Source of the DNA: Auanema rhodensis
Lineage: Eukaryota > Animalia > Nematoda
DNA length: 64,000 nucleotides
Assembly (NCBI GenBank): GCA_964057225.1
Contig: OZ059897.1
Coordinates: 22,134,001 to 22,198,000, forward strand
Direction: 5' to 3'
Below the pieces are notes generated by a model. It saw nothing but the letters and a program-made list of their open reading frames with translations, did not search any database and had not been told where the DNA came from. This document shows, piece by piece, positions 18,401-64,000 of this stretch (the stretch's first letter is position 1; every line of letters begins with the position of its first letter). A program made the translations under genes and the position numbers.

Positions 18401-18480
18401 TGCGGTTTTCAAAATTAGATTCCCCATGTCCATATTAGTCTAAAAACAAATTTTTATTGATATTGGTACATGGTAACCAT
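12497..18480. repeat. Variant subdomain with a 12-monomer block repeated at a 22-monomer (3872-bp) offset (12497-14608 and 16369-18480) and an internal ~5-mer repeat
   Basis: The alleles GGTAAATG, GGTACATG, ATTCCTCATG, TCGGTT+TATAAAC and TTTTAATT recur in the same order and are concentrated in this zone. Confidence 0.8.
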
Positions 18481-18656
18481 GACTTTGAAATTTACGTGAA
18501 CTTTAATTTATGCTAATTAAATGTACACGTGATGTGCACTTGGTATGTAACTCGCTTCACGTGAAAGATAAAGAGATGCGGTTTTCAAAATTAGATTCCC
18601 CATGTCCATATTAGTCTAAAAACAAATTTTTATTGATATTGGTTCATGGTAACCAT

Positions 18657-30600: not shown

Positions 30601-30800
30601 TTGATATTGGTGCATGGTAACCATGACTTTGAAATTTACGTGAACTTTAATTTATGCTAATTAAATGTACACGTGATGTGCACTTGGTATGTAACTCGCT
30701 TCACGTGAAAGATAAAGAGATGCGGTTTTCAAAATTAGATTCCCCATGTCCATATTAGTCTAAAAACAAATTTTTATTGATATTGGTGCATGGTAACCAT
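18657..30800. repeat. Nested 8-, 15- and 23-monomer duplications; 22705-26752 = 26753-30800
   Basis: A six-monomer marker cassette (TTAATTAATG; TCAACAC; GTTTGC; TGGAC; AAAAGT+CTCC+TATGC; GGAAG+TTTCC+TTTTCA) starts at 19009, 20417, 23057 and 27105. Confidence 0.9.
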
Positions 30801-36800: not shown

Positions 36801-38015
36801 GAACTTTAATTTATGCTAATTAAATGTACACGTGATGTGCACTTGGTATGTAACTCGCTTCACGTGAAAGATAAAGAAATGCGGTTTTCAAAATTAGATT
36901 CCCCATGTCCATATTAGTCTAAAAACAAATTTTCATTGATATTGGTTCATGGTAACCATGACTTTGAAATTTACGTGAACTTTAATTTATGCTAATTAAA
37001 TGTACACGTGATGTGCACTTGGTATGTAACTCGCTTCACGTGAAAGATAAAGAGATGCGGTTTTCAAAATTAGATTCCCCATGTCCATATTAGTCTAAAA
37101 ACAAATTTTTATTGATATTGCTTCATGGTAACCATGACTTTGAAATTTACGTGAACTTTAATTTATGCTAATTAAATGTACACGTGATGTGCACTTGGTA
37201 TGTAACTCGCTTCACGTGAAAGATAAAGAGATGCGGTTTTCAAAATTAGATTCCCCATGTCCATATTAGTCTAAAAACAAATTTTTATTGATATTGGTGC
37301 ATGGTAACCATGACTTTGAAATTTACGTGAACTTTAATTTATGCTAATTAAATGTACACGTGATGTGCACTTGGTATGTAACTCGCTTCACGTGAAAGAT
37401 AAAGAGATGCGGTTTTCAAAATTAGATTCCCCATGTCCATATTAGTCTAAAAACAAATTTTTATTGATATTGGTGCATGGTAACCATGACTTTGAAATTT
37501 ACGTGAACTTTAATTTATGCTAATTAAATGTACACGTGATGTGCACTTGGTATGTAACTCGCTTCACGTGAAAGATAAAGAGATGCGGTTTTCAAAATTA
37601 GATTCCCCATGTCCATATTAGTCTAAAAACAAATTTTTATTGATATTGGTGCATGGTAACCATGACTTTGAAATTTACGTGAACTTTAATTTATGCTAAT
37701 TAAATGTACACGTGATGTGCACTTGGTATGTAACTCGCTTCACGTGAAAGATGAAGAGATGCGGTTTTCAAAATTAGATTCCCCATGTCCATATTAGTCT
37801 AAAAACAAATTTTTATTGATATTGGTTCATGGTAACCATGACTTTGAAATTTACGTGAACTTTAATTTATGCTAATTAAATGTACACGTGATGTGCACTT
37901 GGTATGTAACTCGCTTCACGTGAAAGATAAAGAGATGCGGTTTTCAAAATTAGATTCCCCATGTCCATATTAGTCTAAAAACAAATTTTTATTGATATTG
38001 GTTCATGGTAACCAT

Positions 38016-41000: not shown

Positions 41001-41450
41001 TAACCATGACTTTGAAATTTACGTGAACTTTAATTTATGCTAATTAAATGTACACGTGATGTGCACTTGGTATGTAACTCGCTTCACGTGAAAGATAAAG
41101 AGATGCGGTTTTCAAAATTAGATTCCCCATGTCCATATTAGTCTACAAACAAATTTTTATTGATATTGGTGCATGGTAACCATGACTTTGAAATTTACGT
41201 GAACTTTAATTTATGCTAATTAAATGTACACGTGATGTGCACTTGGTATGTAACTCGCTTCACGTGAAAGATGAAGAGATGCGGTTTTCAAAATTAGATT
41301 CCCCATGTCCATATTAGTCTAAAAACAAATTTTTATTGATATTGGTTCATGGTAACCATGACTTTGAAATTTACGTGAACTTTAATTTATGCTAATTAAA
41401 TGTACACGTGATGTGCACTTGGTATGTAACTCGCTTCACGTGAAAGATAA
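38016..41450. repeat. 10-monomer (1760-bp) tandem duplication
   Basis: GAAAATTACG at ~39081/40841 and GTCTACAAAC at ~39386/41146, with matching order of end alleles. Boundaries are approximate. Confidence 0.8.
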
Positions 41451-44400
41451 AGAGATGCGGTTTTCAAAATTAGATTCCCCATGTCCATATTAGTCTAAAA
41501 ACAAATTTTTATTGATATTGGTTCATGGTAACCATGACTTTGAAATTTACGTGAACTTTAATTTATGCTAATTAAATGTACACGTGATGTGCACTTGGTA
41601 TGTAACTCGCTTCACGTGAAAGATAAAGAGATGCGGTTTTCAAAATTAGATTCCCCATGTCCATATTAGTCTAAAAACAAATTTTTATTGATATTGGTTC
41701 ATGGTAACCATGACTTTGAAATTTACGTGAACTTTAATTTATGCTAATTAAATGTACACGTGATGTGCACTTGGTATGTAACTCGCTTCACGTGAAAGAT
41801 AAAGAGATGCGGTTTTCAAAATTAGATTCCCCATGTCCATATTAGTCTAAAAACAAATTTTTATTGATATTGGTGCATGGTAACCATGACTTTGAAATTT
41901 ACGTGAACTTTAATTTATGCTAATTAAATGTACACGTGATGTGCACTTGGTATGTAACTCGCTTCACGTGAAAGATAAAAAGATGCGGTTTTCAAAATTA
42001 GATTCCCCATGTCCATATTAGTCTAAAAACAAATTTTTATTGATATTGGTTCATGGTAACCATGACTTTGAAATTTACGTGAACTTTAATTTATGCTAAT
42101 TAAATGTACACGTGATGTGCACTTGGTATGTAACTCGCTTCACGTGAAAGATAAAGAGATGCGGTTTTCAAAATTAGATTCCCCATGTCCATATTAGTCT
42201 AAAAACAAATTTTTATTGATATTGGTTCATGGTAACCATGACTTTGAAATTTACGTGAACTTTAATTTATGCTAATTAAATGTACACGTGATGTGCACTT
42301 GGTATGTAACTCGCTTCACGTGAAAGATAAAGAGATGCGGTTTTCAAAATTAGATTCCCCATGTCCATATTAGTCTAAAAACAAATTTTTATTGATATTG
42401 GTGCATGGTAACCATGACTTTGAAATTTACGTGAACTTTAATTTATGCTAATTAAATGTACACGTGATGTGCACTTGGTATGTAACTCGCTTCACGTGAA
42501 AGATAAAGAGATGAGGTTTTCAAAATTAGATTCCCCATGTCCATATTAGTCTAAAAACAAATTTTTATTGATATTGGTGCATGGTAACCATGACTTTGAA
42601 ATTTACGTGAACTTTAATTTATGCTAATTAAATGTACACGTGATGTGCACTTGGTATGTAACTCGCTTCACGTGAAAGATAAAGAGATGCGGTTTTCAAA
42701 ATTAGATTCCCCATGTCCATATTAGTCTAAAAACAAATTTTTATTGATATTGGTGCATGGTAACCATGACTTTGAAATTTACGTGAACTTTAATTTATGC
42801 TAATTAAATGTACACGTGATGTGCACTTGGTATGTAACTCGCTTCACGTGAAAGATAAAGAGATGCGGTTTTCAAAATTAGATTCCCCATGTCCATATTA
42901 GTCTAAAAACAAATTTTTATTGATATTGGTTCATGGTAACCATGACTTTGAAATTTACGTGAACTTTAATTTATGCTAATTAAATGTATACGTGATGTGC
43001 ACTTGGTATGTAACTCGCTTCACGTGAAAGATAAAGAGATGCGGTTTTCAAAATTAGATTCCCCATGTCCATATTAGTCTAAAAACAAATTTTTATTGAT
43101 ATTGGTTCATGGTAACCATGACTTTGAAATTTACGTGAACTTTAATTTATGCTAATTAAATGTATACGTGATGTGCACTTGGTATGTAACTCGCTTCACG
43201 TGAAAGATAAAGAGATGCGGTTTTCAAAATTAGATTCCCCATGTCCATATTAGTCTAAAAACAAATTTTTATTGATATTGGTGCATGGTAACCATGACTT
43301 TGAAATTTACGTGAACTTTAATTTATGCTAATTAAATGTACACGTGATGTGCACTTGGTATGTAACTCGCTTCACGTGAAAGATAAAGAGATGCGGTTTT
43401 CAAAATTAGATTCCCCATGTCCATATTAGTCTAAAAACAAATTTTTATTGATATTGGTGCATGGTAACCATGACTTTGAAATTTACGTGAACTTTAATTT
43501 ATGCTAATTAAATGTACACGTGATGTGCACTTGGTATGTAACTCGCTTCACGTGAAAGATGAAGAGATGCGGTTTTCAAAATTAGATTCCCCATGTCCAT
43601 ATTAGTCTAAAAACAAATTTTTATTGATATTGGTTCATGGTAACCATGACTTTGAAATTTACGTGAACTTTAATTTATGCTAATTAAATGTACACGTGAT
43701 GTGCACTTGGTATGTAACTCGCTTCACGTGAAAGATAAAGAGATGCGGTTTTCAAAATTAGATTCCCCATGTCCATATTAGTCTAAAAACAAATTTTTAT
43801 TGATATTGGTTCATGGTAACCATGACTTTGAAATTTACGTGAACTTTAATTTATGCTAATTAAATGTACACGTGATGTGCACTTGGTATGTAACTCGCTT
43901 CACGTGAAAGATAAAGAGATGCGGTTTTCAAAATTAGATTCCCCATGTCCATATTAGTCTAAAAACAAATTTTTATTGATATTGGTTCATGGTAACCATG
44001 ACTTTGAAATTTACGTGAACTTTAATTTATGCTAATTAAATGTACACGTGATGTGCACTTGGTATGTAACTCGCTTCACGTGAAAGATAAAGAGATGCGG
44101 TTTTCAAAATTAGATTCCCCATGTCCATATTAGTCTAAAAACAAATTTTTATTGATATTGGTGCATGGTAACCATGACTTTGAAATTTACGTCAACTTTA
44201 ATTTATGCTAATTAAATGTACACGTGATGTGCACTTGGTATGTAACTCGCTTCACGTGAAAGATGAAGAGATGCGGTTTTCAAAATTAGATTCCCCATGT
44301 CCATATTAGTCTAAAAACAAATTTTTATTGATGTTGGTGCATGGTAACCATGACTTTGAAATTTACGTGAACTTTAATTTATGCTAATTAAATGTACACG

Positions 44401-47400
44401 TGATGTGCACTTGGTATGTAACTCGCTTCACGTGAAAGATAAAGAGATGCGGTTTTCAAAATTTGATTCCCCATGTCCATATTAGTCTAAAAACAGATTT
44501 TTATTGATATTGGTGCATGGTAACCATGACTTTGAAATTTACGTGAACTTTAATTTATGCTAATTAAATGTACACGTGATGTGCACTTGGTATGTAACTC
44601 GCTTCACGTGAAAGATAAAGAGATGCGGTTTTCAAAATTAGATTCCCCATGTCCATATTAGTCTAAAAACAAATTTTTATTGATATTGGTTCATGGTAAC
44701 CATGACTTTGAAATTTACGTGAACTTTAATTTATGCTAATTAAATGTATACGTGATGTGCACTTGGTATGTAACTCGCTTCACGTGAAAGATAAAGAGAT
44801 GCGGTTTTCAAAATTAGATTCCCCATGTCCATATTAGTCTAAAAACAAATTTTTATTGATATTGGTTCATGGTAACCATGACTTTGAAATTTACGTGAAC
44901 TTTAATTTATGCTAATTAAATGTATACGTGATGTGCACTTGGTATGTAACTCGCTTCACGTGAAAGATAAAGAGATGCGGTTTTCAAAATTAGATTCCCC
45001 ATGTCCATATTAGTCTAAAAACAAATTTTTATTGATATTGGTGCATGGTAACCATGACTTTGAAATTTACGTGAACTTTAATTTATGCTAATTAAATGTA
45101 CACGTGATGTGCACTTGGTATGTAACTCGCTTCACGTGAAAGATAAAGAGATGCGGTTTTCAAAATTAGATTCCCCATGTCCATATTAGTCTAAAAACAA
45201 ATTTTTATTGATATTGGTTCATGGTAACCATGACTTTGAAATTTACGTGAACTTTAATTTATGCTAATTAAATGTATACGTGATGTGCACTTGGTATGTA
45301 ACTCGCTTCACGTGAAAGATAAAGAGATGCGGTTTTCAAAATTAGATTCCCCATGTCCATATTAGTCTACAAACAAATTTTTATTGATATTGGTTCATGG
45401 TAACCATGACTTTGAAATTTACGTGAACTTTAATTTATGCTAATTAAATGTACACGTGATGTGCACTTGGTATGTAACTCGCTTCACGTGAAAGATAAAG
45501 AGATGCGGTTTTCAAAATTAGATTTCCCATGTCCATATTAGTCTAAAAACAAATTTTTATTGATATTGGTGCATGGTAACCATGACTTTGAAATTTACGT
45601 GAACTTTAATTTATGCTAATTAAATGTACACGTGATGTGCACTTGGTATGTAACTCGCTTCACGTGAAAGATAAAGAGATGCGGTTTTCAAAATTAGATT
45701 CCCCATGTCCATATTAGTCTAAAAACAAAATTTATTGATATTGGTGCATGGTAACCATGACTTTGAAATTTACGTGAACTTTAATTTATGCTAATTAAAT
45801 GTACACGTGATGTGCACTTGGTATGTAACTCGCTTCACGTGAAAGATAAAGAGATGCGGTTTTCAAAATTAGATTCCCCATGTCCATATTAGTCTAAAAA
45901 CAAATTTTTATTGATATTGGTTCATGGTAACCATGACTTTGAATTTTACGTGAACTTTAATTTATGCTAATTAAATGTACACGTGATGTGCACTTGGTAT
46001 GTAACTCGCTTCACGTGAAAGATAAAGAAATGCGGTTTTCAAAATTAGATTCCCCATGTCCATATTAGTCTAAAAACAAATTTTCATTGATATTGGTTCA
46101 TGGTAACCATGACTTTGAAATTTACGTGAACTTTAATTTATGCTAATTAAATGTACACGTGATGTGCACTTGGTATGTAACTCGCTTCACGTGAAAGATA
46201 AAGAGATGCGGTTTTCAAAATTAGATTCCCCATGTCCATATTAGTCTAAAAACAAATTTGTATTGATATTGCTTCATGGTAACCATGACTTTGAAATTTA
46301 CGTGAACTTTAATTTATGCTAATTAAATGTACACGTGATGTGCACTTGGTATGTAACTCGCTTCACGTGAAAGATAAAGAGATGCGGTTTTCAAAATTAG
46401 ATTCCCCATGTCCATATTAGTCTAAAAACAAATTTTTATTGATATTGGTGCATGGTAACCATGACTTTGAAATTTACGTGAACTTTAATTTATGCTAATT
46501 AAATGTACACGTGATGTGCACTTGGTATGTAACTCGCTTCACGTGAAAGATAAAGAGATGCGGTTTTCAAAATTAGATTCCCCATGTCCATATTAGTCTA
46601 AAAACAAATTTTTATTGATATTGGTTCATGGTAACCATGACTTTGAAATTTACGTGAACTTTAATTTATGCTAATTAAATGTACACGTGATGTGCACTTG
46701 GTATGTAACTCGCTTCACGTGAAAGATAAAGAGATGCGGTTTTCAAAATTAGATTCCCCATGTCCATATTAGTCTAAAAACAAATTTTTATTGATATTGC
46801 TTCATGGTAACCATGACTTTGAAATTTACGTGAACTTTAATTTATGCTAATTAAATGTACACGTGATGTGCACTTGGTATGTAACTCGCTTCACGTGAAA
46901 GATAAAGAGATGCGGTTTTCAAAATTAGATTCCCCATGTCCATATTAGTCTAAAAACAAATTTTTATTGATATTGGTGCATGGTAACCATGACTTTGAAA
47001 TTTACGTGAACTTTAATTTATGCTAATTAAATGTACACGTGATGTGCACTTGGTATGTAACTCGCTTCACGTGAAAGATAAAGAGATGCGGTTTTCAAAA
47101 TTAGATTCCCCATGTCCATATTAGTCTAAAAACAAATTTTTATTGATATTGGTGCATGGTAACCATGACTTTGAAATTTACGTGAACTTTAATTTATGCT
47201 AATTAAATGTACACGTGATGTGCACTTGGTATGTAACTCGCTTCACGTGAAAGATAAAGAGATGCGGTTTTCAAAATTAGATTCCCCATGTCCATATTAG
47301 TCTAAAAACAAATTTTTATTGATATTGGTGCATGGTAACCATGACTTTGAAATTTACGTGAACTTTAATTTATGCTAATTAAATGTACACGTGATGTGCA

Positions 47401-50400
47401 CTTGGTATGTAACTCGCTTCACGTGAAAGATGAAGAGATGCGGTTTTCAAAATTAGATTCCCCATGTCCATATTAGTCTAAAAACAAATTTTTATTGATA
47501 TTGGTTCATGGTAACCATGACTTTGAAATTTACGTGAACTTTAATTTATGCTAATTAAATGTACACGTGATGTGCACTTGGTATGTAACTCGCTTCACGT
47601 GAAAGATAAAGAGATGCGGTTTCCAAAATTAGATTCCCCATGTCCATATTAGTCTAAAAACAAATTTTTATTGATATTGGTTCATGGTAACCATGACTTT
47701 GAAATTTACGTGAACTTTAATTTATGCTAATTAAATGTACACGTGATGTGCACTTGGTATGTAACTCGCTTCACGTGAAAGATAAAGAGATGCGGTTTTC
47801 AAAATTAGATTCCCCATGTCCATATTAGTCTAAAAACAAATTTTTATTGATATTGGTTCATGGTAACCATGACTTTGAAATTTACGTGAACTTTAATTTA
47901 TGCTAATTAAATGTACACGTGATGTGCACTTGGTATGTAACTCGCTTCACGTGAAAGATAAAGAGATGCGGTTTTCAAAATTAGATTCCCCATGTCCATA
48001 TTAGTCTAAAAACAAATTTTTATTGATATTGGTGCATGGTAACCATGACTTTGAAATTTACGTGAACTTTAATTTATGCTAATTAAATGTACACGTGATG
48101 TGCACTTGGTATGTAACTCGCTTCACGTGAAAGATAAAGAGATGCGGTTTTCAAAATTAGATTCCCCATGTCCATATTAGTCTAAAAACAAATTTTTATT
48201 GATATTGGTGCATGGTAACCATGACTTTGAAATTTACGTGAACTTTAATTTATGCTAATTAAATGTACACGTGATGTGCACTTGGTATGTAACTCGCTTC
48301 ACGTGAAAGATAAAGAGATGCGGTTTTCAAAATTAGATTCCCCATGTCCATATTAGTCTAAAAACAAATTTTTATTGATATTGGTGCATGGTAACCATGA
48401 CTTTGAAATTTACGTGAACTTTAATTTATGCTAATTAAATGTACACGTGATGTGCACTTGGTATGTAACTCGCTTCACGTGAAAGATAAAGAGATGCGGT
48501 TTTCAAAATTAGATTCCCCATGTCCATATTAGTCTAAAAACAAATTTTTATTGATATTGGTGCATGGTAACCATGACTTTGAAATTTACGTGAACTTTAA
48601 TTTATGCTAATTAAATGTACACGTGATGTGCACTTGGTATGTAACTCGCTTCACGTGAAAGATAAAGAGATGCGGTTTTCAAAATTAGATTCCCCATGTC
48701 CATATTAGTCTAAAAACAAATTTTTATTGATATTGGTGCATGGTAACCATGACTTTGAAATTTACGTGAACTTTAATTTATGCTAATTAAATGTACACGT
48801 GATGTGCACTTGGTATGTAACTCGCTTCACGTGAAAGATAAAGAGATGCGGTTTTCAAAATTAGATTCCCCATGTCCATATTAGTCTAAAAACAAATTTT
48901 TATTGATATTGGTTCATGGTAACCATGACTTTGAAATTTACGTGAACTTTAATTTATGCTAATTAAATGTACACGTGATGTGCACTTGGTATGTAACTCG
49001 CTTCACGTGAAAGATAAAGAGATGCGGTTTTCAAAATTAGATTCCCCATGTCCATATTAGTCTAAAAACAAATTTTTATTGATATTGGTTCATGGTAACC
49101 ATGACTTTGAAATTTACGTGAACTTTAATTTATGCTAATTAAATGTACACGTGATGTGCACTTGGTATGTAACTCGCTTCACGTGAAAGATAAAGAGATG
49201 CGGTTTTCAAAATTAGATTCCCCATGTCCATATTAGTCTAAAAACAAATTTTTATTGATATTGGTGCATGGTAACCATGACTTTGAAATTTACGTGAACT
49301 TTAATTTATGCTAATTAAATGTACACGTGATGTGCACTTGGTATGTAACTCGCTTCACGTGAAAGATAAAGAGATGCGGTTTTCAAAATTAGATTCCCCA
49401 TGTCCATATTAGTCTAAAAACAAATTTTTATTGATATTGGTGCATGGTAACCATGACTTTGAAATTTACGTGAACTTTAATTTATGCTAATTAAATGTAC
49501 ACGTGATGTGCACTTGGTATGTAACTCGCTTCACGTGAAAGATAAAGAGATGCGGTTTTCAAAATTAGATTCCCCATGTCCATATTAGTCTAAAAACAAA
49601 TTTTTATTGATATTGGTTCATGGTAACCATGACTTTGAAATTTACGTGAACTTTAATTTATGCTAATTAAATGTACACGTGATGTGCACTTGGTATGTAA
49701 CTCGCTTCACGTGAAAGATAAAGAGATGCGGTTTTCAAAATTAGATTCCCCATGTCCATATTAGTCTAAAAACAAATTTTTATTGATATTGGTGCATGGT
49801 AACCATGACTTTGAAATTTACGTCAACTTTAATTTATGCTAATTAAATGTACACGTGATGTGCACTTGGTATGTAACTCGCTTCACGTGAAAGATGAAGA
49901 GATGCGGTTTCCAAAATTAGATTCCCCATGTCCATATTAGTCTAAAAACAAATTTTTATTGATATTGGTGCATGGTAACCATGACTTTGAAATTTACGTG
50001 AACTTTAATTTATGCTAATTAAATCTACACGTGATGTGCACTTGGTATGTAACTCGCTTCACGTGAAAGATAAAGAGATGCGGTTTTCAAAATTAGATTC
50101 CCCATGTCCATATTAGTCTAAAAACAAATTTTTATTGATATTGGTGCATGGTAACCATGACTTTGAAATTTACGTGAACTTTAATTTATGCTAATTAAAT
50201 GTACACGTGATGTGCACTTGGTATGTAACTCGCTTCACGTGAAAGATAAAGAGATGCGGTTTTCAAAATTAGATTCCCCATGTCCATATTAGTCTAAAAA
50301 CAAATTTTTATTGATATTGGTTCATGGTAACCATGATTTTGAAATTTACGTGAACTTTAATTTATGCTAATTAAATGTACACGTGATGTGCACTTGGTAT

Positions 50401-53400
50401 GTAACTCGCTTCACGTGAAAGATAAAGAGATGCGGTTTTCAAAATTAGATTCCCCATGTCCATATTAGTCTAAAAACAAATTTTTATTGATATTGGTGCA
50501 TGGTAACCATGACTTTGAAATTTACGTCAACTTTAATTTATGCTAATTAAATGTACACGTGATGTGCACTTGGTATGTAACTCGCTTCACGTGAAAGATG
50601 AAGAGATGCGGTTTTCAAAATTAGATTCCCCATGTCCATATTAGTCTAAAAACAAATTTTTATTGATGTTGGTGCATGGTAACCATGACTTTGAAATTTA
50701 CGTGAACTTTAATTTATGCTAATTAAATGTACACGTGATGTGCACTTGGTATGTAACTCGCTTCACGTGAAAGATAAAGAGATGCGGTTTTCAAAATTAG
50801 ATTCCCCATGTCCATATTAGTCTAAAAACAAATTTTTATTGATATTGGTGCATGGTAACCATGACTTTGAAATTTACGTGAACTTTAATTTATGCTAATT
50901 AAATGTACACGTGATGTGCACTTGGTATGTAACTCGCTTCACGTGAAAGATAAAGAGATGCGGTTTTCAAAATTAGATTCCCCATGTCCATATTAGTCTA
51001 AAAACAAATTTTTATTGATATTGGTTCATGGTAACCATGACTTTGAAATTTACGTGAACTTTAATTTATGCTAATTAAATGTACACGTGATGTGCACTTG
51101 GTATGTAACTCGCTTCACGTGAAAGATAAAGAGATGCGGTTTTCAAAATTAGATTCCCCATGTCCATATTAGTCTAAAAACAAATTTTTATTGATATTGG
51201 TTCATGGTAACCATGACTTTGAATTTTACGTGAACTTTAATTTATGCTAATTAAATGTACACGTGATGTGCACTTGGTATGTAACTCGCTTCACGTGAAA
51301 GATAAAGAAATGCGGTTTTCAAAATTAGATTCCCCATGTCCATATTAGTCTAAAAACAAATTTTCATTGATATTGGTTCATGGTAACCATGACTTTGAAA
51401 TTTACGTGAACTTTAATTTATGCTAATTAAATGTACACGTGATGTGCACTTGGTATGTAACTCGCTTCACGTGAAAGATAAAGAGATGCGGTTTTCAAAA
51501 TTAGATTCCCCATGTCCATATTAGTCTAAAAACAAATTTTTATTGATATTGCTTCATGGTAACCATGACTTTGAAATTTACGTGAACTTTAATTTATGCT
51601 AATTAAATGTACACGTGATGTGCACTTGGTATGTAACTCGCTTCACGTGAAAGATAAAGAGATGCGGTTTTCAAAATTAGATTCCCCATGTCCATATTAG
51701 TCTAAAAACAAATTTTTATTGATATTGGTGCATGGTAACCATGACTTTGAAATTTACGTGAACTTTAATTTATGCTAATTAAATGTACACGTGATGTGCA
51801 CTTGGTATGTAACTCGCTTCACGTGAAAGATAAAGAGATGCGGTTTTCAAAATTAGATTCCCCATGTCCATATTAGTCTAAAAACAAATTTTTATTGATA
51901 TTGGTGCATGGTAACCATGACTTTGAAATTTACGTGAACTTTAATTTATGCTAATTAAATGTACACGTGATGTGCACTTGGTATGTAACTCGCTTCACGT
52001 GAAAGATAAAGAGATGCGGTTTTCAAAATTAGATTCCCCATGTCCATATTAGTCTAAAAACAAATTTTTATTGATATTGGTGCATGGTAACCATGACTTT
52101 GAAATTTACGTGAACTTTAATTTATGCTAATTAAATGTACACGTGATGTGCACTTGGTATGTAACTCGCTTCACGTGAAAGATGAAGAGATGCGGTTTGC
52201 AAAATTAGATTCCCCATGTCCATATTAGTCTAAAAACAAATTTTTATTGATATTGGTGCATGGTAACCATGACTTTGAAATTTACGTGAACTTTAATTTA
52301 TGCTAATTAAATGTACACGTGATGTGCACTTGGTATGTAACTCGCTTCACGTGAAAGATAAAGAGATGCGGTTTTCAAAATTAGATTCCCCATGTCCATA
52401 TTAGTCTAAAAACAAATTTTTATTGATATTGCTTCATGGTAACCATGACTTTGAAATTTACGTGAACTTTAATTTATGCTAATTAAATGTACACGTGATG
52501 TGCACTTGGTATGTAACTCGCTTCACGTGAAAGATAAAGAGATGCGGTTTTCAAAATTAGATTCCCCATGTCCATATTAGTCTAAAAACAAATTTTTATT
52601 GATATTGGTGCATGGTAACCATGACTTTGAAATTTACGTGAACTTTAATTTATGCTAATTAAATGTACACGTGATGTGCACTTGGTATGTAACTCGCTTC
52701 ACGTGAAAGATAAAGAGATGCGGTTTTCAAAATTAGATTCCCCATGTCCATATTAGTCTAAAAACAAATTTTTATTGATATTGGTGCATGGTAACCATGA
52801 CTTTGAAATTTACGTGAACTTTAATTTATGCTAATTAAATGTACACGTGATGTGCACTTGGTATGTAACTCGCTTCACGTGAAAGATAAAGAGATGCGGT
52901 TTTCAAAATTAGATTCCCCATGTCCATATTAGTCTAAAAACAAATTTTTATTGATATTGGTGCATGGTAACCATGACTTTGAAATTTACGTGAACTTTAA
53001 TTTATGCTAATTAAATGTACACGTGATGTGCACTTGGTATGTAACTCGCTTCACGTGAAAGATAAAGAGATGCGGTTTTCAAAATTAGATTCCCCATGTC
53101 CATATTAGTCTAAAAACAAATTTTTATTGATATTGGTGCATGGTAACCATGACTTTGAAATTTACGTGAACTTTAATTTATGCTAATTAAATGTACACGT
53201 GATGTGCACTTGGTATGTAACTCGCTTCACGTGAAAGATGAAGAGATGCGGTTTGCAAAATTAGATTCCCCATGTCCATATTAGTCTAAAAACAAATTTT
53301 TATTGACATTGGTTCATGGTAACCATGACTTTGAAATTTACGTGAACTTTAATTTATGCTAATTAAATGTACACGTGATGTGCACTTGGTATGTAACTCG

Positions 53401-56400
53401 CTTCACGTGAAAGACAAAGAGATGCGGTTTTCAAAATTAGATTCCCCATGTCCATATTAGTCTAAAAACAAATTTTTATTGATATTGGTGCATGGTAACC
53501 ATGACTTTGAAATTTACGTGAACTTTAATTTATGCTAATTAAATGTACACGTGATGTGCACTTGGTATGTAACTCGCTTCACGTGAAAGATGAAGAGATG
53601 CGGTTTGCAAAATTAGATTCCCCATGTCCATATTAGTCTAAAAACAAATTTTTATTGACATTGGTGCATGGTAACCATGACTTTGAAATTTACGTGAACT
53701 TTAATTTATGCTAATTAAATGTACACGTGATGTGCACTTGGTATGTAACTCGCTTCACGTGAAAGACAAAGAGATGCGGTTTTCAAAATTAGATTCCCCA
53801 TGTCCATATTAGTCTAAAAACAAATTTTTATTGATATTGGTGCATGGTAACCATGACTTTGAAATTTACGTGAACTTTAATTTATGCTAATTAAATGTAC
53901 ACGTGATGTGCACTTGGTATGTAACTCGCTTCACGTGAAAGATAAAGAGATGCGGTTTTCAAAATTAGATTCCCCATGTCCATATTAGTCTAAAAACAAA
54001 TTTTTATTGATATTGGTTCATGGTAACCATGACTTTGAAATTTACGTGAACTTTAATTTATGCTAATTAAATGTACACGTGATGTGCACTTGGTATGTAA
54101 CTCGCTTCACGTGAAAGATAAAGAGATGCGGTTTTCAAAATTAGATTCCCCATGTCCATATTAGTCTAAAAACAAATTTTTATTGACATTGGTGCATGGT
54201 AACCATGACTTTGAAATTTACGTGAACTTTAATTTATGCTAATTAAATGTACACGTGATGTGCACTTGGTATGTAACTCGCTTCACGTGAAAGATAAAGA
54301 GATGCGGTTTTCAAAATTAGATTCCCCATGTCCATATTAGTCTAAAAACAAATTTTTATTGATATTGGTGCATGGTAACCATGACTTTGAAATTTACGTG
54401 AACTTTAATTTATGCTAATTAAATGTACACGTGATGTGCACTTGGTATGTAACTCGCTTCACGTGAAAGATGAAGAGATGCGGTTTTCAAAATTAGATTC
54501 CCCATGTCCATATTAGTCTCAAAACAAATTTTTATTGATATTGGTGCATGGTAACCATGACTTTGAAATTTACGTGAACTTTAATTTATGCTAATTAAAT
54601 GTACACGTGATGTGCACTTGGTATGTAACTCGCTTCACGTGAAAGATAAGGAGATGCGGTTTTCAAAATTAGATTCCCCATGTCCATATTAGTCTAAAAA
54701 CAAATTTTTATTGATATTGGTGCATGGTAACCATGACTTTGAAATTTACGTGAACTTTAATTTATGCTAATTAAATGTACACGTGATGTGCACTTGGTAT
54801 GTAACTCGGTTCACGTGAAAGATGAAGAGATGCGGTTTTCAAAATTAGATTCCCCATGTCCATATTAGTCTCAAAACAAATTTTTATTGATATTGGTGCA
54901 TGGTAACCATGACTTTGAAATTTACGTGAACTTTAATTTATGCTAATTAAATGTACACGTGATGTGCACTTGGTATGTAACTCGCTTCACGTGAAAGATA
55001 AGGAGATGCGGTTTTCAAAATTAGATTCCCCATGTCCATATTAGTCTAAAAACAAATTTTTATTGATATTGGTGCATGGTAACCATGACTTTGAAATTTA
55101 CGTGAACTTTAATTTATGCTAATTAAATGTACACGTGATGGGCACTTGGTATGTAACTCGCTTCACGTGAAAGATAAAGAGATGCGGTTTTCAAAATTAG
55201 ATTCCCCATGTCCATATTAGTCTAAAAACAAATTTTTATTGATATTGGTTCATGGTAACCATGACTTTGAAATTTACGTGAACTTTAATTTATGCTAATT
55301 AAATGTACACGTGATGTGCACTTGGTATGTAACTCGCTTCACGTGAAAGATAAAGAGATGCGGTTTTCAAAATTAGATTCCCCATGTCCATATTAGTCTA
55401 AAAACAAATTTTTATTGATATTGGTGCATGGTAACCATGACTTTGAAATTTACGTGAACTTTAATTTATGCTAATTAAATGTACACGTGATGTGCACTTG
55501 GTATGTAACTCGGTTCACGTGAAAGATAAAGAGATGCGGTTTTCAAAATTAGATTCCCCATGTCCATATTAGTCTAAAAACAAATTTTTATTGATATTGG
55601 TGCATGGTAACCATGACTTTGAAATTTACGTGAACTTTAATTTATGCTAATTAAATGTACACGTGATGTGCACTTGGTATGTAACTCGCTTCACGTGAAA
55701 GATAAAGAGATGCGGTTTTCAAAATTAGATTCCCCATGTCCATATTAGTCTAAAAACAAATTTTTATTGATTTTGGTTCATGGTAACCATGACTTTGAAA
55801 TTTACGTGAACTTTAATTTATGCTAATTAAATGTACACGTGATGTGCACTTGGTATGTAACTCGCTTCACGTGAAAGATAAAGAGATGCGGTTTTCAAAA
55901 TTAGATTCCCCATGTCCATATTAGTCTAAAAACAAATTTTTATTGATATTGGTTCATGGTAACCATGACTTTGAAATTTACGTGAACTTTAATTTATGCT
56001 AATTAAATGTACACGTGATGTGCACTTGGTATGTAACTCGCTTCACGTGAAAGATAAAGAGATGCGGTTTTCAAAATTAGATTCCCCATGTCCATATTAG
56101 TCTAAAAACAAATTTTTATTGATATTGGTGCATGGTAACCATGACTTTGAAATTTACGTGAACTTTAATTTATGCTAATTAAATGTACACGTGATGTGCA
56201 CTTGGTATGTAACTCGCTTCACGTGAAAGATAAAGAGATGCGGTTTTCAAAATTAAATTTCCCATGTCCATATTAGTCTAAAAACTAATTTTTATTGATA
56301 TTGGTGCATGGTAACCATGACTTTGAAATTTACGTGAACTTTAATTTATGCTAATTGAATGTACACGTGATGTGCACTTGGTATGTAACTCGCTTCACGT

Positions 56401-59400
56401 GAAAGATAAAGAGATGCGGTTTTCAAAATTAGATTCCCCATGTCCATATTAGTCTAAAAACAAATTTTTATTGATATTGGTTCATGGTAACCATGACTTT
56501 GAAATTTACGTGAACTTTAATTTATGCTAATTAAATGTACACGTGATGTGCACTTGGTGTGTAACTCGCTTCACGTGAAAGATAAAGAGATGCGGTTTTC
56601 AAAATTAGATTCCCCATGTCCATATTAGTCTAAAAACAAATTTTTATTGATATTGGTGCATGGTAACCATGACTTTGAAATTTACGTGAACTTTAATTTA
56701 TGCTAATTAAATGTACACGTGATGTGCACTTGGTATGTAACTCGCTTCACGTGAAAGATAAAGAGATGCGGTTTTCAAAATTAGATTCCCCATATCCATA
56801 TTAGTTTAAAAACAAATTTTTATTGATATTGGTGCATGGTAACCATGACTTTGAAATTTACGTGAACTTTAATTTATGCTAATTAAATGTACACGTGATG
56901 TGCACTTGGTATGTAACTCGCTTCACGTGAAAGATAAAGAGATGCGGTTTTCAAAATTAGATTCCCCATGTCCATATTAGTCTAAAAACAAATTTTTATT
57001 GATATTGGTTCATGGTAACCATGACTTTGAAATTTACGTGAACTTTAATTTATGCTAATTAAATGTACACGTGATGTGCACTTGGTATGTAACTCGCTTC
57101 ACGTGAAAGATAAAGAGATGCGGTTTTCAAAATTAGATTCCCCATGTCCATATTAGTCTAAAAACAAATTTTTATTGATATTGGTGCATGGTAACCATGA
57201 CTTTGAAATTTACGTGAACTTTAATTTATGCTAATTAAATGTACACGTGATGTGCACTTGGTATGTAACTCGCTTCACGTGAAAGATAAAGAGATGCGGT
57301 TTTCAAAATTAGATTCCCCATATCCATATTAGTTTAAAAACAAATTTTTATTGATATTGGTGCATGGTAACCATGACTTTGAAATTTACGTGAACTTTAA
57401 TTTATGCTAATTAAATGTACACGTGATGTGCACTTGGTATGTAACTCGCTTCACGTGAAAGATAAAGAGATGCGGTTTTCAAAATTAGATTCCCCATGTC
57501 CATATTAGTCTAAAAACAAATTTTTATTGATATTGGTTCATGGTAACCATGACTTTGAAATTTACGTGAACTTTAATTTATGCTAATTAAATGTACACGT
57601 GATGTGCACTTGGTATGTAACTCGCTTCACGTGAAAGATAAGGAGATGCGGTTTTCAAAATTAGATTCCCCATGTCCATATTAGTCTAAAAACAAATTTT
57701 TATTGATATTGGTGCATGGTAACCATGACTTTGAAATTTACGTGAACTTTAATTTATGCTAATTAAATGTACACGTGATGGGCACTTGGTATGTAACTCG
57801 CTTCACGTGAAAGATAAAGAGATGCGGTTTTCAAAATTAGATTCCCCATATCCATATTAGTCTAAAAACAAATTTTTATTGATATTGGTTCATGGTAACC
57901 ATGACTTTGAAATTTACGTGAACTTTAATTTATGCTAATTAAATGTACACGTGATGTGCACTTGGTATGTAACTCGCTTCACGTGAAAGATAAAGAGATG
58001 CGGTTTTCAAAATTAGATTCCCCATGTCCATATTAGTCTAAAAACAAATTTTTATTGATATTGGTGCATGGTAACCATGACTTTGAAATTTACGTGAACT
58101 TTAATTTATGCTAATTAAATGTACACGTGATGTGCACTTGGTATGTAACTCGCTTCACGTGAAAGATAAAGAGATGCGGTTTTCAAAATTAGATTCCCCA
58201 TGTCCATATTAGTCTAAAAACAAATTTTTATTGATATTGGTGCATGGTAACCATGACTTTGAAATTTACGTGAACTTTAATTTATGCTAATTAAATGTAC
58301 ACGTGATGTGCACTTGGTATGTAACTCGCTTCACGTGAAAGATAAAGAGATGCGGTTTTCAAAATTAGATTCCCCATATCCATATTATTAGTTTAAAAAC
58401 AAATTTTTATTGATATTGGTGCATGGTAACCATGACTTTGAAATTTACGTGAACTTTAATTTATGCTAATTAAATGTACACGTGATGTGCACTTGGTATG
58501 TAACTCGCTTCACGTGAAAGATAAGGAGATGCGGTTTTCAAAATTAGATTCCCCATATCCATATTAGTTTAAAAACAAATTTTTATTGACATTGGTGCAT
58601 GGTAACCATGACTTTGAAATTTACGTGAACTTTAATTTATGCTAATTAAATGTACACGTGATGGGCACTTGGTATGTAACTCGCTTCACGTGAAAGATAA
58701 GGAGATGCGGTTTTCAAAATTAGATTCCCCATGTCCATATTAGTCTAAAAACAAATTTTTATTGATATTGGTTCATGGTAACCATGACTTTGAAATTTAC
58801 GTGAACTTTAATTTATGCTAATTAAATGTACACGTGATGTGCACTTGGTATGTAACTCGCTTCACGTGAAAGATAAAGAGATGCGGTTTTCAAAATTAGA
58901 TTCCCCATGTCCATATTAGTCTAAAAACAAATTTTTATTGATATTGGTGCATGGTAACCATGACTTTGAAATTTACGTGAACTTTAATTTATGCTAATTA
59001 AATGTACACGTGATGTGCACTTGGTATGTAACTCGCTTCACGTGAAAGATAAAGAGATGCGGTTTTCAAAATTAGATTCCCCATGTCCATATTAGTCTAA
59101 AAACAAATTTTTATTGATATTGGTGCATGGTAACCATGACTTTGAAATTTACGTGAACTTTAATTTATGCTAATTAAATGTACACGTGATGTGCACTTGG
59201 TATGTAACTCGCTTCACGTGAAAGATAAAGAGATGCGGTTTTCAAAATTAGATTCCCCATATCCATATTATTAGTTTAAAAACAAATTTTTATTGATATT
59301 GGTGCATGGTAACCATGACTTTGAAATTTACGTGAACTTTAATTTATGCTAATTAAATGTACACGTGATGTGCACTTGGTATGTAACTCGCTTCACGTGA

Positions 59401-59890
59401 AAGATAAGGAGATGCGGTTTTCAAAATTAGATTCCCCATATCCATATTAGTTTAAAAACAAATTTTTATTGACATTGGTGCATGGTAACCATGACTTTGA
59501 AATTTACGTGAACTTTAATTTATGCTAATTAAATGTACACGTGATGTGCACTTGGTATGTAACTCGCTTCACGTGAAAGATAAGGAGATGCGGTTTTCAA
59601 AATTAGATTCCCCATGTCCATATTAGTCTAAAAACAAATTTTTATTGATATTGGTGCATGGTAACCATGACTTTGAAATTTACGTGAACTTTAATTTATG
59701 CTAATTAAATGTACACGTGATGGGCACTTGGTATGTAACTCGCTTCACGTGAAAGATAAAGAGATGCGGTTTTCAAAATTAGATTCCCCATGTCCATATT
59801 AGTCTAAAAACAAATTTTTATTGATATTGGTTCATGATAACCATGACTTTGAAATTTACGTGAACTTTAATTTATGCTAATTAAATGTAC

Positions 59891-59906
59891 ACGTTTATAC
59901 GTTTAT
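59891..59906 (-). repeat. LINE 3'-terminal octamer repeat (ATAAACGT)x2
   Basis: Plus strand ACGTTTAT at 59891-59898 and 59899-59906. The first ACGT is shared with the satellite. CR1 elements typically end in short tandem repeats rather than poly(A). Confidence 0.8.
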
Positions 59907-59907
59907 T
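59902..59907 (-). promoter_or_regulatory. AATAAA polyadenylation-signal hexamer overlapping the tail repeat
   Basis: Plus TTTATT = minus AATAAA at the element's 3' end. Function is not demonstrable from sequence and the context is AT-rich. Confidence 0.45.
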
Positions 59908-60380
59908 GGTTTAATGTTCAATATTACAGGTTTAACGAAATGAGTAAATAATTGTGTAGTAGGATGTATAAGAACCTTACAATAGGAACAGGAAAAATAG
60001 GAAACATTATAAAACATAGTTAGGGAGAGAATGATCTGAGAATGAGTTGCAGTGAGCAGTTTCTTTCAAATTTTTCCAGTGAGAACAGGGGGTTTTGTTC
60101 AGCGAATTGCTGACCTCCGGTTGGTAGTTGTTAGGTACGGAGGTACTCATGATTCGAGCCGAGCCCGTTCTAACAATAGGAGGTAACTTGCATTCAATCC
60201 GTATGACTCATGTCTATAAGATTTGAAGCGAAGTAACAAGAAGTGTAGAAGGGTTGGAAAAAAGAAATGAAACTGTCGCACTTAGTCATAATCAGAAAAA
60301 CATTTAAAGAGAAAAAAACAAAAACGCGAAGAGTAATATGAAAAAAAAACAAAACAAAGAGATTATAACCAAGAATGAAC
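59907..60380 (-). other. LINE 3' UTR with a structured core at ~60083-60185
   Basis: Lies between the ORF2 stop (60381-60383) and the tail. U-rich on the sense strand, with several 5-7 bp inverted repeats. Confidence 0.8.
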
Positions 60381-63269
60381 TTAACTACATAAAAATGTGG
60401 AAGGATCATGTTGTGAGCCTCGTAGGGCATTGTAGAGGTGTTTCTTGAAGCTTCCGATTTTTGTTTGTTGAATTAGGTTCTCAGGTAAGGAATTCCATGC
60501 CTTTATAACTCTGTATTCGATGCCGTTTCTTGAAGTGTTTTTCCGAAGATTCGGAAAAACAACATTCCATTGGTGTCTACGTAGAGAGTGAGAAAAAAGT
60601 TTAATTTCAAAAATTCTAAATTCTGCCTCAGCTTTAATATGGTTAAAATAAAATAAAAGATCGGTTACCAGCCTTCTGGTTGATAGATCATCGGCATGAA
60701 GAGCGGTAAGCTGATCGGCGTAGCTAGAAAAAATTCCTGCCCTACAAAAAACTGCACGCAAAAACTTTTTCTGTACGTTTTCTATACGAGCTTTGTTTTT
60801 GTTATCCTGTGGTGACCATACGACTGATGCGTACTCAAGAATAGGACGAACATAGCAACAAAAAAGTCTAAACATTAAAACCGGGGATCTAGAATGAAAA
60901 CAACGTAGGATAATGCGGCATTTTTGAGCTGCCAAGTTGCTAACATAGTTGATGTGACTACCAAATAATAAGTTTTGGTCTGTTAAAACTCCGAGGTCTT
61001 TATAGCTTGATGCTAGAGACAAAGGGAACTCACCGAAAGAAAACGTTTTTTCAATTTTTTGAGATGAGCTATCATCAGAAAACACCATTATTTTAGTTTT
61101 GCTTGTGTTGACTCTCATTCCGTTGTTGTTACACCAATCATTAAGAGAATTGAGTGCATTTTGAAGACTTACCCGGTTAGTGCTGTACAGCTTGAGATCG
61201 TCAGCAAATAAAGTGGAATGAACGTCATCAGGGAGAAAAGATGTGATGTCGTTGATGTAAAAAAGAAAAAGAAGAGGGCCTAAAACAGTACCTTGGGGAA
61301 CGCCACACAATAAATTGGTAGAGTTGGAGAGAGAATTATTGACCAAAACTGAGTAAGATCTGTTTGTGATGAAATTTTTGAGAAATGATAGAAGAGAGCC
61401 ACGCACACCAATGGAGTGAAGTTTGTGGATGAGTATAGAGTGATTGATGAGGTCAAATGCTTTTGAGAAATCTATGAATGCAACAAAAACTGGTAAGTTT
61501 TTGTCGATAGATGATCTCCAAGCAATATGACTGTTGATAATGGCTGAAACCGTATTACGCTTAGGAAGAAAAGCGTGTTGGTTAGAAGATATTGAACCGG
61601 TTGAAATGCCAAAGTTGAGAAGGGGGGAGCTTATAAGACGCTCAAAAACCTTGGAGAGACTAGGAGTAAGAGATATAGGACGATAATTGGAAGGAGTAGA
61701 ACGATTGCCGGATTTGAAGATTGGTCGAATCCAAGCTTTTTTCCAAGCAGGAGGACAGGATGAGGAAACGAGAAGATTGTGAAAAATGAAAGCCAGTGGG
61801 AGAGTGAGAGAGAAAGCGCATTGTTTGAGAAAGTAGTAAGGAATTCCGTCCGGAGAAGTTGAAACTCTAAGAGGAAGATGAGAAAGAACCTTGTAGACTT
61901 TGTCCGGAGAAATATCTATGAAGTCTATGGTAGAAGAAAAAGCAGGGGAAGGATTTATTTTTTTGAAAGAAGATCCTGGTTTGACAAAAAAAGTATCTGC
62001 GAAAACAGATGCTTTATCGCTGTCGGATGAGTACGTGTTGTTTTCACATTTAATGGTGGGGATATCTGAAGTGCATGCTCCAAGACGAGCTCTGCAAAAT
62101 TGATAGAAAATTCTAGGGTTGTTGAGAGCTGCGGTTTTCTCTTCTTCAGAAGCAGATTTAAGTTTCAGAAGTCTATCAAGCTTGATAGTCAGTTTTTTGC
62201 GATGAAGTTCGTCTCGAGGGCAGATAGATGAACTAAGTCTGCTGATAAAACTAGAAAGACTAGCAATTTCTTTATCGATTTTGTTCTTTCGTTTTGGCTG
62301 CTTATAGGGAACAAACCTGTTAATGACAGAGTGAATAATTTCGATAAATTTTGTGTAGGAGTCCAGAGGAGTAAGAACGGAAAGTTCCGTAGCAAAGTCG
62401 ATGCTGGCAAGGTGGTGGTTAATTATGTTGTAATCCGCCCGAAGAAAATTGAGTTGAGCAAAGTTTGGTAAAGAAGAATTGATAGGTGAAACAACGGGAG
62501 GAAGAGACAAATCCGATCTGACAGAGTTGCTGAGTATAGAAAAAATGACAGAGTAGTGGTCGGAGTTACCTAAAGGAGAGGAACGGACTATGTTACTGAC
62601 CATAGTAGAATTATTTGTGATGATGTAGTCGAGAATATATTTTCCACGGGTAGGAAAATTTACCAGCTGATCCGAACAGCTATCTTTCAAAAATTGAAAA
62701 ATAGATCCACTGGAGGGGGACGGGCGGGAAGATTCAGAAAGATCCCAGTTGATGTAGGGAAAATTTAAATCACCTGTGATGAGGAATGAACGGTTTTTTA
62801 TATGGCCAGTAAGATCTGAAAGATAATGAGAAAAATCGGAATGAAGAGAAGAGGGAGAGCGGTAACAAACCGAAAAAACTGTGTTGATAGAAGAGATGAG
62901 TATGTTGATGAATTGGACGGAAGAAGATTGAGAAGAACAAGAAAGTAAGGTAGAGTTAATAGATTTTTTGATGAAGATAAGAGTGCCGCCGCCACGGGCT
63001 GTACACTTGTCGGCTCTGAATAGATTGTAATAGTTACCGAGCGGAATATGATTAGAGTTGAAATTGGGAAAAAGCCAGGATTCTGATATCGCAATGATAT
63101 CAGGAGATGAAATACTATGGATAGTAGTAAGAAAATGAAATTTGTTGAGAATAGAGCGTGCATTATAACAATGAACAGAAAAATTAACAGGGACACAGGA
63201 ACTGGACGTAGTTGACGGTTGTGAAGCCTTAACGAAATAACCTGTTCGTATCAGACTCAGGTTGAGATG
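60381..63269 (-). CDS. LINE ORF2: AP-like endonuclease + reverse transcriptase (962 sense codons stop-to-stop; no initiating AUG)
   Basis: The supplied 769-aa ORF starts at an internal TTG. Manual translation continues without stops to TAA at 63270-63272. EN motifs: YNARSILNK, PDIIAISESWL, RGGGTLIFIK, CYRSP, ITGDLNFPYINW, PTRGKYILDY, GNSDH. RT motifs: NYRPISL, FIDFSKAFD, GVPQGTVLGPLLF, LFADD (FADD at 61197-61208), YKDLGV. Confidence 0.93.
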   Translation of the reverse strand, partial: HLNLSLIRTGYFVKASQPSTTSSSCVPVNFSVHCYNARSILNKFHFLTTIHSISSPDIIAISESWLFPNFNSNHIPLGNYYNLFRADKCTARGGGTLIFIKKSINSTLLSCSSQSSSVQFINILISSINTVFSVCYRSPSSLHSDFSHYLSDLTGHIKNRSFLITGDLNFPYINWDLSESSRPSPSSGSIFQFLKDSCSDQLVNFPTRGKYILDYIITNNSTMVSNIVRSSPLGNSDHYSVIFSILSNSVRSDLSLPPVVSPINSSLPNFAQLNFLRADYNIINHHLASIDFATELSVLTPLDSYTKFIEIIHSVINRFVPYKQPKRKNKIDKEIASLSSFISRLSSSICPRDELHRKKLTIKLDRLLKLKSASEEEKTAALNNPRIFYQFCRARLGACTSDIPTIKCENNTYSSDSDKASVFADTFFVKPGSSFKKINPSPAFSSTIDFIDISPDKVYKVLSHLPLRVSTSPDGIPYYFLKQCAFSLTLPLAFIFHNLLVSSSCPPAWKKAWIRPIFKSGNRSTPSNYRPISLTPSLSKVFERLISSPLLNFGISTGSISSNQHAFLPKRNTVSAIINSHIAWRSSIDKNLPVFVAFIDFSKAFDLINHSILIHKLHSIGVRGSLLSFLKNFITNRSYSVLVNNSLSNSTNLLCGVPQGTVLGPLLFLFYINDITSFLPDDVHSTLFADDLKLYSTNRVSLQNALNSLNDWCNNNGMRVNTSKTKIMVFSDDSSSQKIEKTFSFGEFPLSLASSYKDLGVLTDQNLLFGSHINYVSNLAAQKCRIILRCFHSRSPVLMFRLFCCYVRPILEYASVVWSPQDNKNKARIENVQKKFLRAVFCRAGIFSSYADQLTALHADDLSTRRLVTDLLFYFNHIKAEAEFRIFEIKLFSHSLRRHQWNVVFPNLRKNTSRNGIEYRVIKAWNSLPENLIQQTKIGSFKKHLYNALRGSQHDPSTFLCS
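62545..63170 (-). other. APE (exonuclease-endonuclease-phosphatase) domain of ORF2, mostly missed by the ORF track
   Basis: All canonical catalytic residues are in one frame: N (63162-64), E (63081-83), Y (62862-64), GDxN (62763-74), D of LDY, and SDH (62556-64). Confidence 0.9.
63229..63237 (-). promoter_or_regulatory. Candidate +1 programmed ribosomal frameshift site UUU_CGU_UAA
   Basis: These are the last two sense codons and the stop of ORF1. A +1 slip (UUU to UUC) enters the ORF2 frame (UUC GUU AAG GCU). Confidence 0.55.
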
Positions 63270-63999
63270 TTATATTAGAACCGCTTTTAGATCTGGTATG
63301 GTACTCGGAATTGGTTTCAGTACAGCGTGGGGGATTTTTCCTCTTTCTGGGGCTGATTGAAAATCTCTCAACCGTAGAAAGAGGTTTGGATCTACCTGCT
63401 GAACGGTTATTCCTACCAGATTTAGAAGGCGGACTGGCTATTACAACAGTGTCGGACACAGACGGACAAGGAACGATAGGGTCATTTTGGACCACAGGAC
63501 AGAGACTGGAGACATTTTGAGAAGCATTAATGTTTGAGAGAACATGAATAGAGGGTGAAGTTGATTTACGAAGAACCTTGATAAGTTTAAGGTCGCGTAC
63601 AAGGTAAATTGATTCATTATTGTCCAGATTTTTATTTTTAGCTTCCTCACGAAGTTTTTTTTCTATTTCTACCTCGAAAGGAAGATAGTCGCGGCGAATA
63701 AAAGTTTTTGACAAACAAGCAAAGCATTTCGCTTTGTTGGACTTAATGATATCAATAATTTTGTCACGTAAATCAACTGTTGAACATGAAATTACAAGAG
63801 GACCAAGAGATTTAGATTTTAGAGTTGAACGGGTTATAGTAATTTGGTTGCTGTTAATGAGAGAAGTCAAAGTAGAGTCGTTAGATTTTTCAACGACAAG
63901 TTTTAGGAGAGAAGTGGGGTCCGAGGGTAGTTCGGATGAGTCGTGGGGAACACGAAACCACACCGCTCTATTCAAACGATAGGAAAACTTTGACTCCTC
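63229..63999 (-). CDS. LINE ORF1 (5'-partial), likely nucleic-acid-binding RRM/CTD-type protein with a basic S/P/R-rich tail
   Basis: The frame is open to the window edge (EESKFSYRLNRAVWFRVP...), so the TTG start in the track is not the true start. RAVWFRVP, LVISCS..RDKII and FIRRDY..E.E.EKKLR...N...YLVRDLK resemble invertebrate CR1-type ORF1 segments (recognised from memory, not by search). It lies directly upstream of ORF2. Confidence 0.8.
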   Translation of the reverse strand, partial: EESKFSYRLNRAVWFRVPHDSSELPSDPTSLLKLVVEKSNDSTLTSLINSNQITITRSTLKSKSLGPLVISCSTVDLRDKIIDIIKSNKAKCFACLSKTFIRRDYLPFEVEIEKKLREEAKNKNLDNNESIYLVRDLKLIKVLRKSTSPSIHVLSNINASQNVSSLCPVVQNDPIVPCPSVSDTVVIASPPSKSGRNNRSAGRSKPLSTVERFSISPRKRKNPPRCTETNSEYHTRSKSGSNITSQPESDTNRLFR

Positions 64000-64000
64000 A

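Follow-up and report, generated by a model that had tools for sequence, protein, structure and literature searches.

A nematode CR1-group LINE with an AUG-less ORF2 and a candidate PA-X-type +1 frameshift site where ORF1 ends

The DNA analysed here (hereafter the window) comprises 64,000 nucleotides of contig OZ059897.1 of the nematode Auanema rhodensis (assembly GCA_964057225.1, positions 22,134,001 to 22,198,000), and consists of 59.9 kb of satellite followed by one minus-strand retroelement, with no second copy of that element in the window. The final part of the window is an intact CR1-group non-LTR retrotransposon (long interspersed nuclear element, LINE) inserted in a 176-bp satellite. 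Its second open reading frame (ORF2), which codes for an endonuclease and a reverse transcriptase (RT), opens without an AUG inside the end of the first (ORF1). This junction is real, intact and selected, and taking the analyses together it appears best explained by a +1 frameshift of the type known from PA-X of influenza A virus. The features are as follows.

63229..63269, minus strand: ORF1/ORF2 overlap, 41 nt, ORF2 in the +1 frame
63232..63237, minus strand: TTT CGT, candidate +1 shift site, with the ORF1 stop TAA (63229-63231) immediately after it
63229..63999, minus strand: ORF1, 256 aa in the window, 5'-open at the window edge, no Met in the visible part
63562..63999, minus strand: RRM + CTD core of ORF1 (L1-type, 'type II' ORF1), from a structural model (pLDDT 87.5) and Foldseek
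63238..63561, minus strand: S/T/P-rich tail of ORF1, evident from the sequence; probable fusion linker
60381..63269, minus strand: ORF2 open frame, 962 aa; predicted post-shift part from 63233, 950 aa
62556..63164, minus strand: APE-type endonuclease, aa 36-238 (Pfam PF03372 and PF14529; motifs)
62601..62603, minus strand: first in-frame ATG of ORF2, aa 223
61065..61694, minus strand: reverse transcriptase, aa 526-735, FADD (Pfam PF00078, E 5.9e-34)
63202..63241, minus strand: possible 40-nt GT-AG intron (part of a rival explanation), CAG/GTTATT ... GTCCAG/, weak acceptor
59895..60380, minus strand: 3' UTR, with AATAAAC/TATAAAC repeats at its end, on the satellite border
59895..64000, minus strand: the CR1-group LINE as a whole, its 5' part running past the window edge; present once in the window
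1..59894, no strand: tandem array of a 176-bp satellite (340 copies, 98% matches) that adjoins the 3' end of the element

ORF2 shows the order expected of the CR1 group, an APE-type endonuclease followed by a non-LTR RT, on the evidence of both Pfam families and motifs. CR1-group elements have neither RNase H nor a C-terminal CCHC knuckle; no RNase H family occurred among the Pfam matches of the element at E <= 1, and no CCHC pattern was found in ORF2. The C-terminal region of ORF2 aligns along its whole length with CR1-like matches, the nearest ORF2 relatives reached share only about 30% identity, and none of three ORF2 forms looked up exactly in the protein collection was present. In RT trees (quick and FastTree versions), which include no named reference elements, the window element forms a long branch that is outside the distant CR1 group or unresolved with respect to it. 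ORF1 gave no match in a Pfam search; its core, modelled on 15 sequences, is nevertheless of a known type, since the top 11 matches of a Foldseek PDB search were human LINE-1 ORF1p (best E 4.1e-4, TM 0.57). With CR1-group LINEs that carry a type II ORF1 the element shares the APE endonuclease and RT, the lack of a CCHC knuckle, the L1-type ORF1 fold and possibly the short 3' repeats (here two imperfect 7-nt repeats at the 3' end; the 5' end lies beyond the window edge), and the nematode T1/CR1 elements Sam and Frodo serve as a comparison. Type II ORF1 (an L1-like arrangement of coiled coil, RRM and CTD) has been reported in CR1 and L2 lineages (PMC4120745; papers are cited throughout for individual passages).

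The original prediction held that the ORF2 frame, at +1 to ORF1, opens at 63269 and overlaps it by 41 nt, that no in-frame AUG follows until 62601-62603, after nearly the whole endonuclease, and that ORF1 ends AGG UUA UUU CGU UAA; the reading frames bear out all three statements. The ATG at aa 223 sits near the end of the endonuclease, whose motifs begin with NARS (aa 36) and finish with SDH (aa 236), and initiation there would cost the protein NARS, ISESW, GDLN and LDYI. An AUG-less ORF2 that overlaps ORF1 at a known slip sequence suggests that the RT is likely to be produced as a continuation of the ORF1 protein. The end of ORF1 (peptide ...NRLFR) places an in-frame UUU_CGN inside the overlap, where the +1 frame is open, and TTT to TTC is the sole +1 re-pairing without a mismatch at positions 1-2 among the 13 overlap codons. 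Judged by the element's own codon use, the chance of an in-frame TTT CGN is p 0.018 within the 12 codon pairs of the overlap and p 0.003 among the last two. A shift by -2 was ruled out by inspection, as TTT would then face TAT. No stimulatory RNA structure was found near the junction, where 4/4 segments fold no better than shuffles (z 0.06-1.22). The predicted transframe product has 255 + 950 = 1205 aa within the window, which reproduces the fusion of at least 1205 aa first proposed; because homologous ORF1s extend 91-98 residues further at the N-terminus (HMMER scan), the complete fusion would measure about 1300 aa, with the S/T/P-rich tail as its probable linker.

Ten sequencing runs of three studies contain the stretch, nine of them with half its words or more, and four were compared in detail. 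In all four (3 studies) one contig per run spans the junction with 0 gaps; these contigs carry 11, 6, 9 and 6 substitutions, none of them within 63217-63317, and an assembly error as the source of the frame offset is excluded. As the original prediction would have it, in none of the four runs are the ORFs fused in frame or does an AUG stand at the ORF2 start, and TTT CGT TAA is kept in each. Upstream of the first AUG, 8/9 of the substitutions listed are synonymous in the ORF2 frame, against 24% expected (p 7e-5, no transition bias modelled), and within the four fully accounted junction contigs the figure is 5/6; the synonymous changes include ORF2 aa 18 and 19, just beyond the ORF1 stop. This substitution pattern shows purifying selection in the ORF2 frame upstream of its first AUG, and mostly synonymous change in an AUG-less stretch implies that the stretch is read as protein. 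The junction-bridging copies differ from the window by only about 2% around the junction, the window may itself derive from one of the four runs, and assembly into contigs merges rare variants, so that the copies carry little information on deep conservation. The same runs also hold contigs with 14 differences in 128 nt (62830-62957) and up to 40 in 234 nt (63559-63792), which represent further subfamilies; set beside the junction variant at about 2%, they make recombination or gene conversion between copies possible.

Deeper comparison is offered by ORF1 at the protein level. Searching with the ORF1 core in a full HMMER scan yielded 16 matches at E <= 1e-3; the named homologues are mostly from nematodes, which points to a rhabditid nematode as the probable host, and the three closest (P0048-P0050, i.e. 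CAI4221027.1, CAI4220742.1 and CAI4220829.1), all labelled Auanema, are stand-alone proteins of 360-404 aa with 38, 32 and 34% identity. Their C-termini read ...CQNSFR, ...LTSFRK and ...HSTFRK, to be compared with ...NRLFR in the window, and UUU_CGN encodes Phe-Arg, the zero-frame PA-X site itself reading S-F-R. Only four of the 68 proteins collected end in FR or FRx, namely these three ORF1s and one unrelated ORF2, and the chance of such an end is 0.3-0.5% per protein. Word-indexed protein searches with ORF1 returned no longer fused forms and no near-length proteins, which is weak evidence; scans of viral contigs and prokaryote genomes with the ORF1 alignment found no locus, and an ESM Atlas search with P0048 reached eukaryote clusters only. 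In a Pristionchus-labelled cluster (P0054, P0065-P0068) ORF1 ends in a conserved ...VVKA or ...AVKA rather than FR, so that another junction is probable there.

At the DNA level, 162 distant CR1-group loci were collected, probably animal DNA within metagenomes and metagenome-assembled genomes (MAGs). Counting the window, 55 have the endonuclease start, and 24 combine an ORF1 of >=180 aa with an ORF2 of >=500 aa, the other 31 being dropped for missing one of the two. Relative to ORF1, ORF2 of these 24 elements lies at +1 in nine (overlapping in seven), at -1 in eight and in frame in seven. Among the six +1-overlap elements besides the window, L013 and L086 (ORF2 identity to the window element 29-30%) have an in-frame TTT CGT, L003 and L008 have TTT C in the +1 overlap, and L009 and L043 have neither TTT CG nor TTT C. 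L086 offers the cleanest case: in its CTC TTC TTT CGT the site stands 5 codons past the opening of the +1 frame, 41 codons separate it from the stop, and no AUG precedes the endonuclease. TTT C in 4/6 of the +1-overlap elements has p 0.003 by their own codon use and p 0.035 against 17 controls, i.e. the last 99 codon pairs of the ORF1s of 17 control elements. At most, the survey is suggestive. Apparent -1 slippery heptamers in L005 and L006 were set aside as parts of a conserved RDMTPLE peptide, and L081 and L082 were examined and yielded no junction.

Several observations weigh against a programmed shift. TTT CGN in 2/6 of the +1-overlap elements reaches p 0.016 by own codon use and only p 0.11 against the controls; the Phe of TTT C in L003 and L008 belongs to a PAM2-like peptide, an AUG is present in the overlap of L003, L008 and L013, L009 has neither AUG nor TTT C, and the RT trees do not put the window element inside the distant +1-overlap group. 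A second in-frame TTT CGT in ORF1, at 63957, leads nowhere, its +1 frame stopping after 16 aa, so the motif does arise by chance. As to the homologues, the three that end in FR share ancestry and are not independent, their FR is seen at the protein level and may reflect a peptide constraint, the number of residues between the last aligned motif and FR differs by as many as 22, and no alignment was obtained between the tails of the window ORF1 and P0049 (E 2.2). The other 13/16 ORF1 matches (27-33% identity, with Pristionchus and other nematode labels and one repetitive false match) have no terminal FR, and in four of the 13, all gene models, a single chain holds ORF1 and endonuclease, be it through a genuine fusion or through introns that were predicted. 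Finally, an AUG-independent start of ORF2 is thought to occur in mammalian L1 (PMC5009743), so the absence of an AUG does not by itself force a frameshift.

With these points weighed, it seems likely to us, from the combined analyses, that a PA-X-type +1 frameshift yields an ORF1-endonuclease-RT fusion in this nematode CR1-group LINE; frames, motif, sister copies and FR-ending homologues speak for the fusion that the original prediction had proposed. If the mechanism is that of PA-X, P-site tRNA-Phe would move its pairing from UUU to UUC during slow decoding of CGU in the A site. Most ribosomes would terminate one codon after the slip site and release ORF1p, and some 1-2% would shift, through the junction ...RLF-VKASQ..., and make the protein of about 1300 aa. 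Such a fusion could join the ORF1p trimer coat through its ORF1 part, set a high ratio of ORF1 to RT and tether the RT to its own RNA.

It is unlikely, in our judgement, that ORF2 is instead a separate protein made by termination-reinitiation or from a near-cognate start near the ORF1 stop, with FR as a peptide feature or pause signal. Termination-reinitiation is the mechanism reported for SART1 and L1 (PMC5972666, PMC2881922), calicivirus reinitiation tolerates non-AUG codons (PMC5972666), and two ORF2-frame CTG codons (63260 and 63254), which precede the ORF1 stop by 25-31 nt, are candidate starts, if the start is not AUG-independent as proposed for L1; selection on the endonuclease is compatible with such a start as well. 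The junction itself does not resemble SART1, as it has no ORF2-frame ATG before aa 223, no UAAUG and no stable downstream fold, and reinitiation leaves unexplained both why the conserved end dipeptide matches UUU_CGN coding and why in L086 the TTT CGT is 41 codons away from the stop, in a place that the +1 frame reaches 5 codons past its opening.

That the motif arose by chance, in a descendant of a single-ORF or AUG-bearing ancestor with a fixed indel that is mobilised in trans or leaks through unprogrammed slippage, is very unlikely: an in-frame TTT CGN does occur once elsewhere in the 243 ORF1 codons, and the agreement of sister copies so close to one another is a weak test, but ORF1 and ORF2 are both intact, ORF2 is under selection immediately past the junction, and stand-alone ORF1s with an FR end exist at 32-38% identity. 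We give hardly any credence to a small intron that removes the ORF1 stop and fuses the two ORFs in frame, for although 26 GT-AG pairs would fuse the frames, the best candidate fits 4/6 donor and 4/7 acceptor consensus bases and some Pristionchus gene models join ORF1 and endonuclease, none of the 4 AG sites is a strong TTTTCAG acceptor, both substitutions inside the candidate intron (63213 and 63216) are synonymous in ORF2 (p 0.056), no joints were seen in a region covered by DNA contigs only, and spliced LINE RNA would presumably be copied back without the intron.

The predicted +1 shift has counterparts in RNA viruses. Slippage at UUU_CGU in PA-X has been proven by mass spectrometry (0.7-1.3%; PMC3498833), with no downstream stimulator evident (PMC5009743), and for amalgaviruses a shift at UUU_CGN has been put forward as the source of an ORF1-polymerase fusion (PMC5052127). 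The window element shares with these systems the in-frame UUU_CGU (UCC_UUU_CGU in PA-X), the downstream frame at +1, the F-V junction and the lack of a detected stimulatory structure. It differs in being a chromosomal retrotransposon rather than an RNA virus, with a shift that is predicted; its site is preceded by UUA instead of the UCC of PA-X (S or T stands before F in the homologues), and it occupies the final two sense codons of its 41-nt overlap, whereas amalgavirus overlaps measure 287-968 nt (PMC5052127).

Like SART1 (UAAUG) and human L1, as described in reviews, the element would have a bicistronic LINE RNA with low-level ORF2 synthesis dependent on the translation of ORF1; in those elements, however, an AUG lies close to the stop and ORF2p is synthesised on its own, whereas the window element has no such AUG. 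The predicted extension of ORF1 is a retrovirus-like strategy, unlike the translation restart of studied LINEs. Bombyx TRAS1 is said to have been proposed to frameshift. Frameshifting in non-LTR elements is already known as such, and here a known type of recoding would stand in a new setting: a -1 frameshift is reported to be required by the Dictyostelium elements TRE5-A and TRE3-A (PMC5911963), and a frameshift by the gag of HeT-A (PMC5009743). TRE5-A and TRE3-A, like Ty1 and Ty3, share with the window element an RT frame reached by frameshift in a retrotransposon, but the former differ in direction (-1) and belong to another LINE clade, and the latter (+1 Gag-Pol) are LTR elements with other motifs. 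The word frameshift has 0 occurrences in the passages considered of two CR1 papers (PMC13343379, PMC4120745), and full-text literature searches, outside which lie subscription papers, Repbase and supplements, found no report of a UUU_CGN shift in a LINE, in agreement with the earlier impression that the motif had not been described in CR1-like LINEs.

Reviews regard the way in which LINEs translate ORF2 as unsettled (PMC3894237), reinitiation being the only ORF2 mechanism that we found tested in animals, and the PA-X paper leaves open whether the UUU_CG motif is used outside viruses (PMC3498833); a six-base site that closes ORF1 and appears to be conserved brings both questions within reach of a test. 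If the frameshift is true, the RT would be covalently attached to an RNA chaperone, which would account simply for both cis preference and the ORF1:ORF2 ratio, and elements of this kind would be misannotated as broken or as intron-containing genes. A wider reading, which we put forward tentatively and hold to be rather doubtful, is that invertebrate CR1-group LINEs widely use a Gag-Pol strategy, expressing ORF2 as a fusion to ORF1 either through UUU_CG +1 shifts (the window's nematode clade, L013, L086) or through UGA-C readthrough (L019, L084). If so, polymerase expression in the window's nematode clade would be the first case in which a chromosomal element uses the PA-X motif for this purpose, and LINE ORF2p that is annotated as separate would frequently be the C-terminal portion of a fusion.

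The distant loci also showed other arrangements of the junction. In L019 (stop 702-704) and L084 (stop about 1701), ORF1 and ORF2 are in frame and split by one TGA followed by C (CAA TGA CAC and TCG TGA CAA), with no AUG before the endonuclease (first Met at aa 206 and 59), which makes them candidates for stop-codon readthrough; L138 resembles them but has TAG GGA. ORF1 of L023 ends (1459) CGT TTT TTA GTA TAA with ORF2 at -1, a U UUU UUA heptamer at the stop and an AUG following at aa 46. PAM2-like peptides, which we take to be a possible docking motif for poly(A)-binding protein, occur in the ORF1 tails of L003 (stop 663, TLNPSAAPFP), L008 (1861, TLNPDAVSFH), L009 (1727, QLNTSATPFVP), L013 (1770, MLDANATPW) and L084 (SLNAAVQSFVP), and in L003, L008 and L009 the peptide begins where the +1 frame of ORF2 opens.

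As to where these loci were found, L083-L162 comprise dozens of animal-type CR1 LINE contigs inside GTDB prokaryotic MAGs, many of them in one Cytophagales bin and in Sedimenticola bins, which is probably due to host contamination. In the window, the intact LINE directly adjoins the 340-copy, 98%-identity array of the 176-bp satellite, and a preprint (bioRxiv 10.64898/2026.08.27.747507) describes eliminated repeat-rich DNA of an Auanema species as rich in genes derived from transposable elements.

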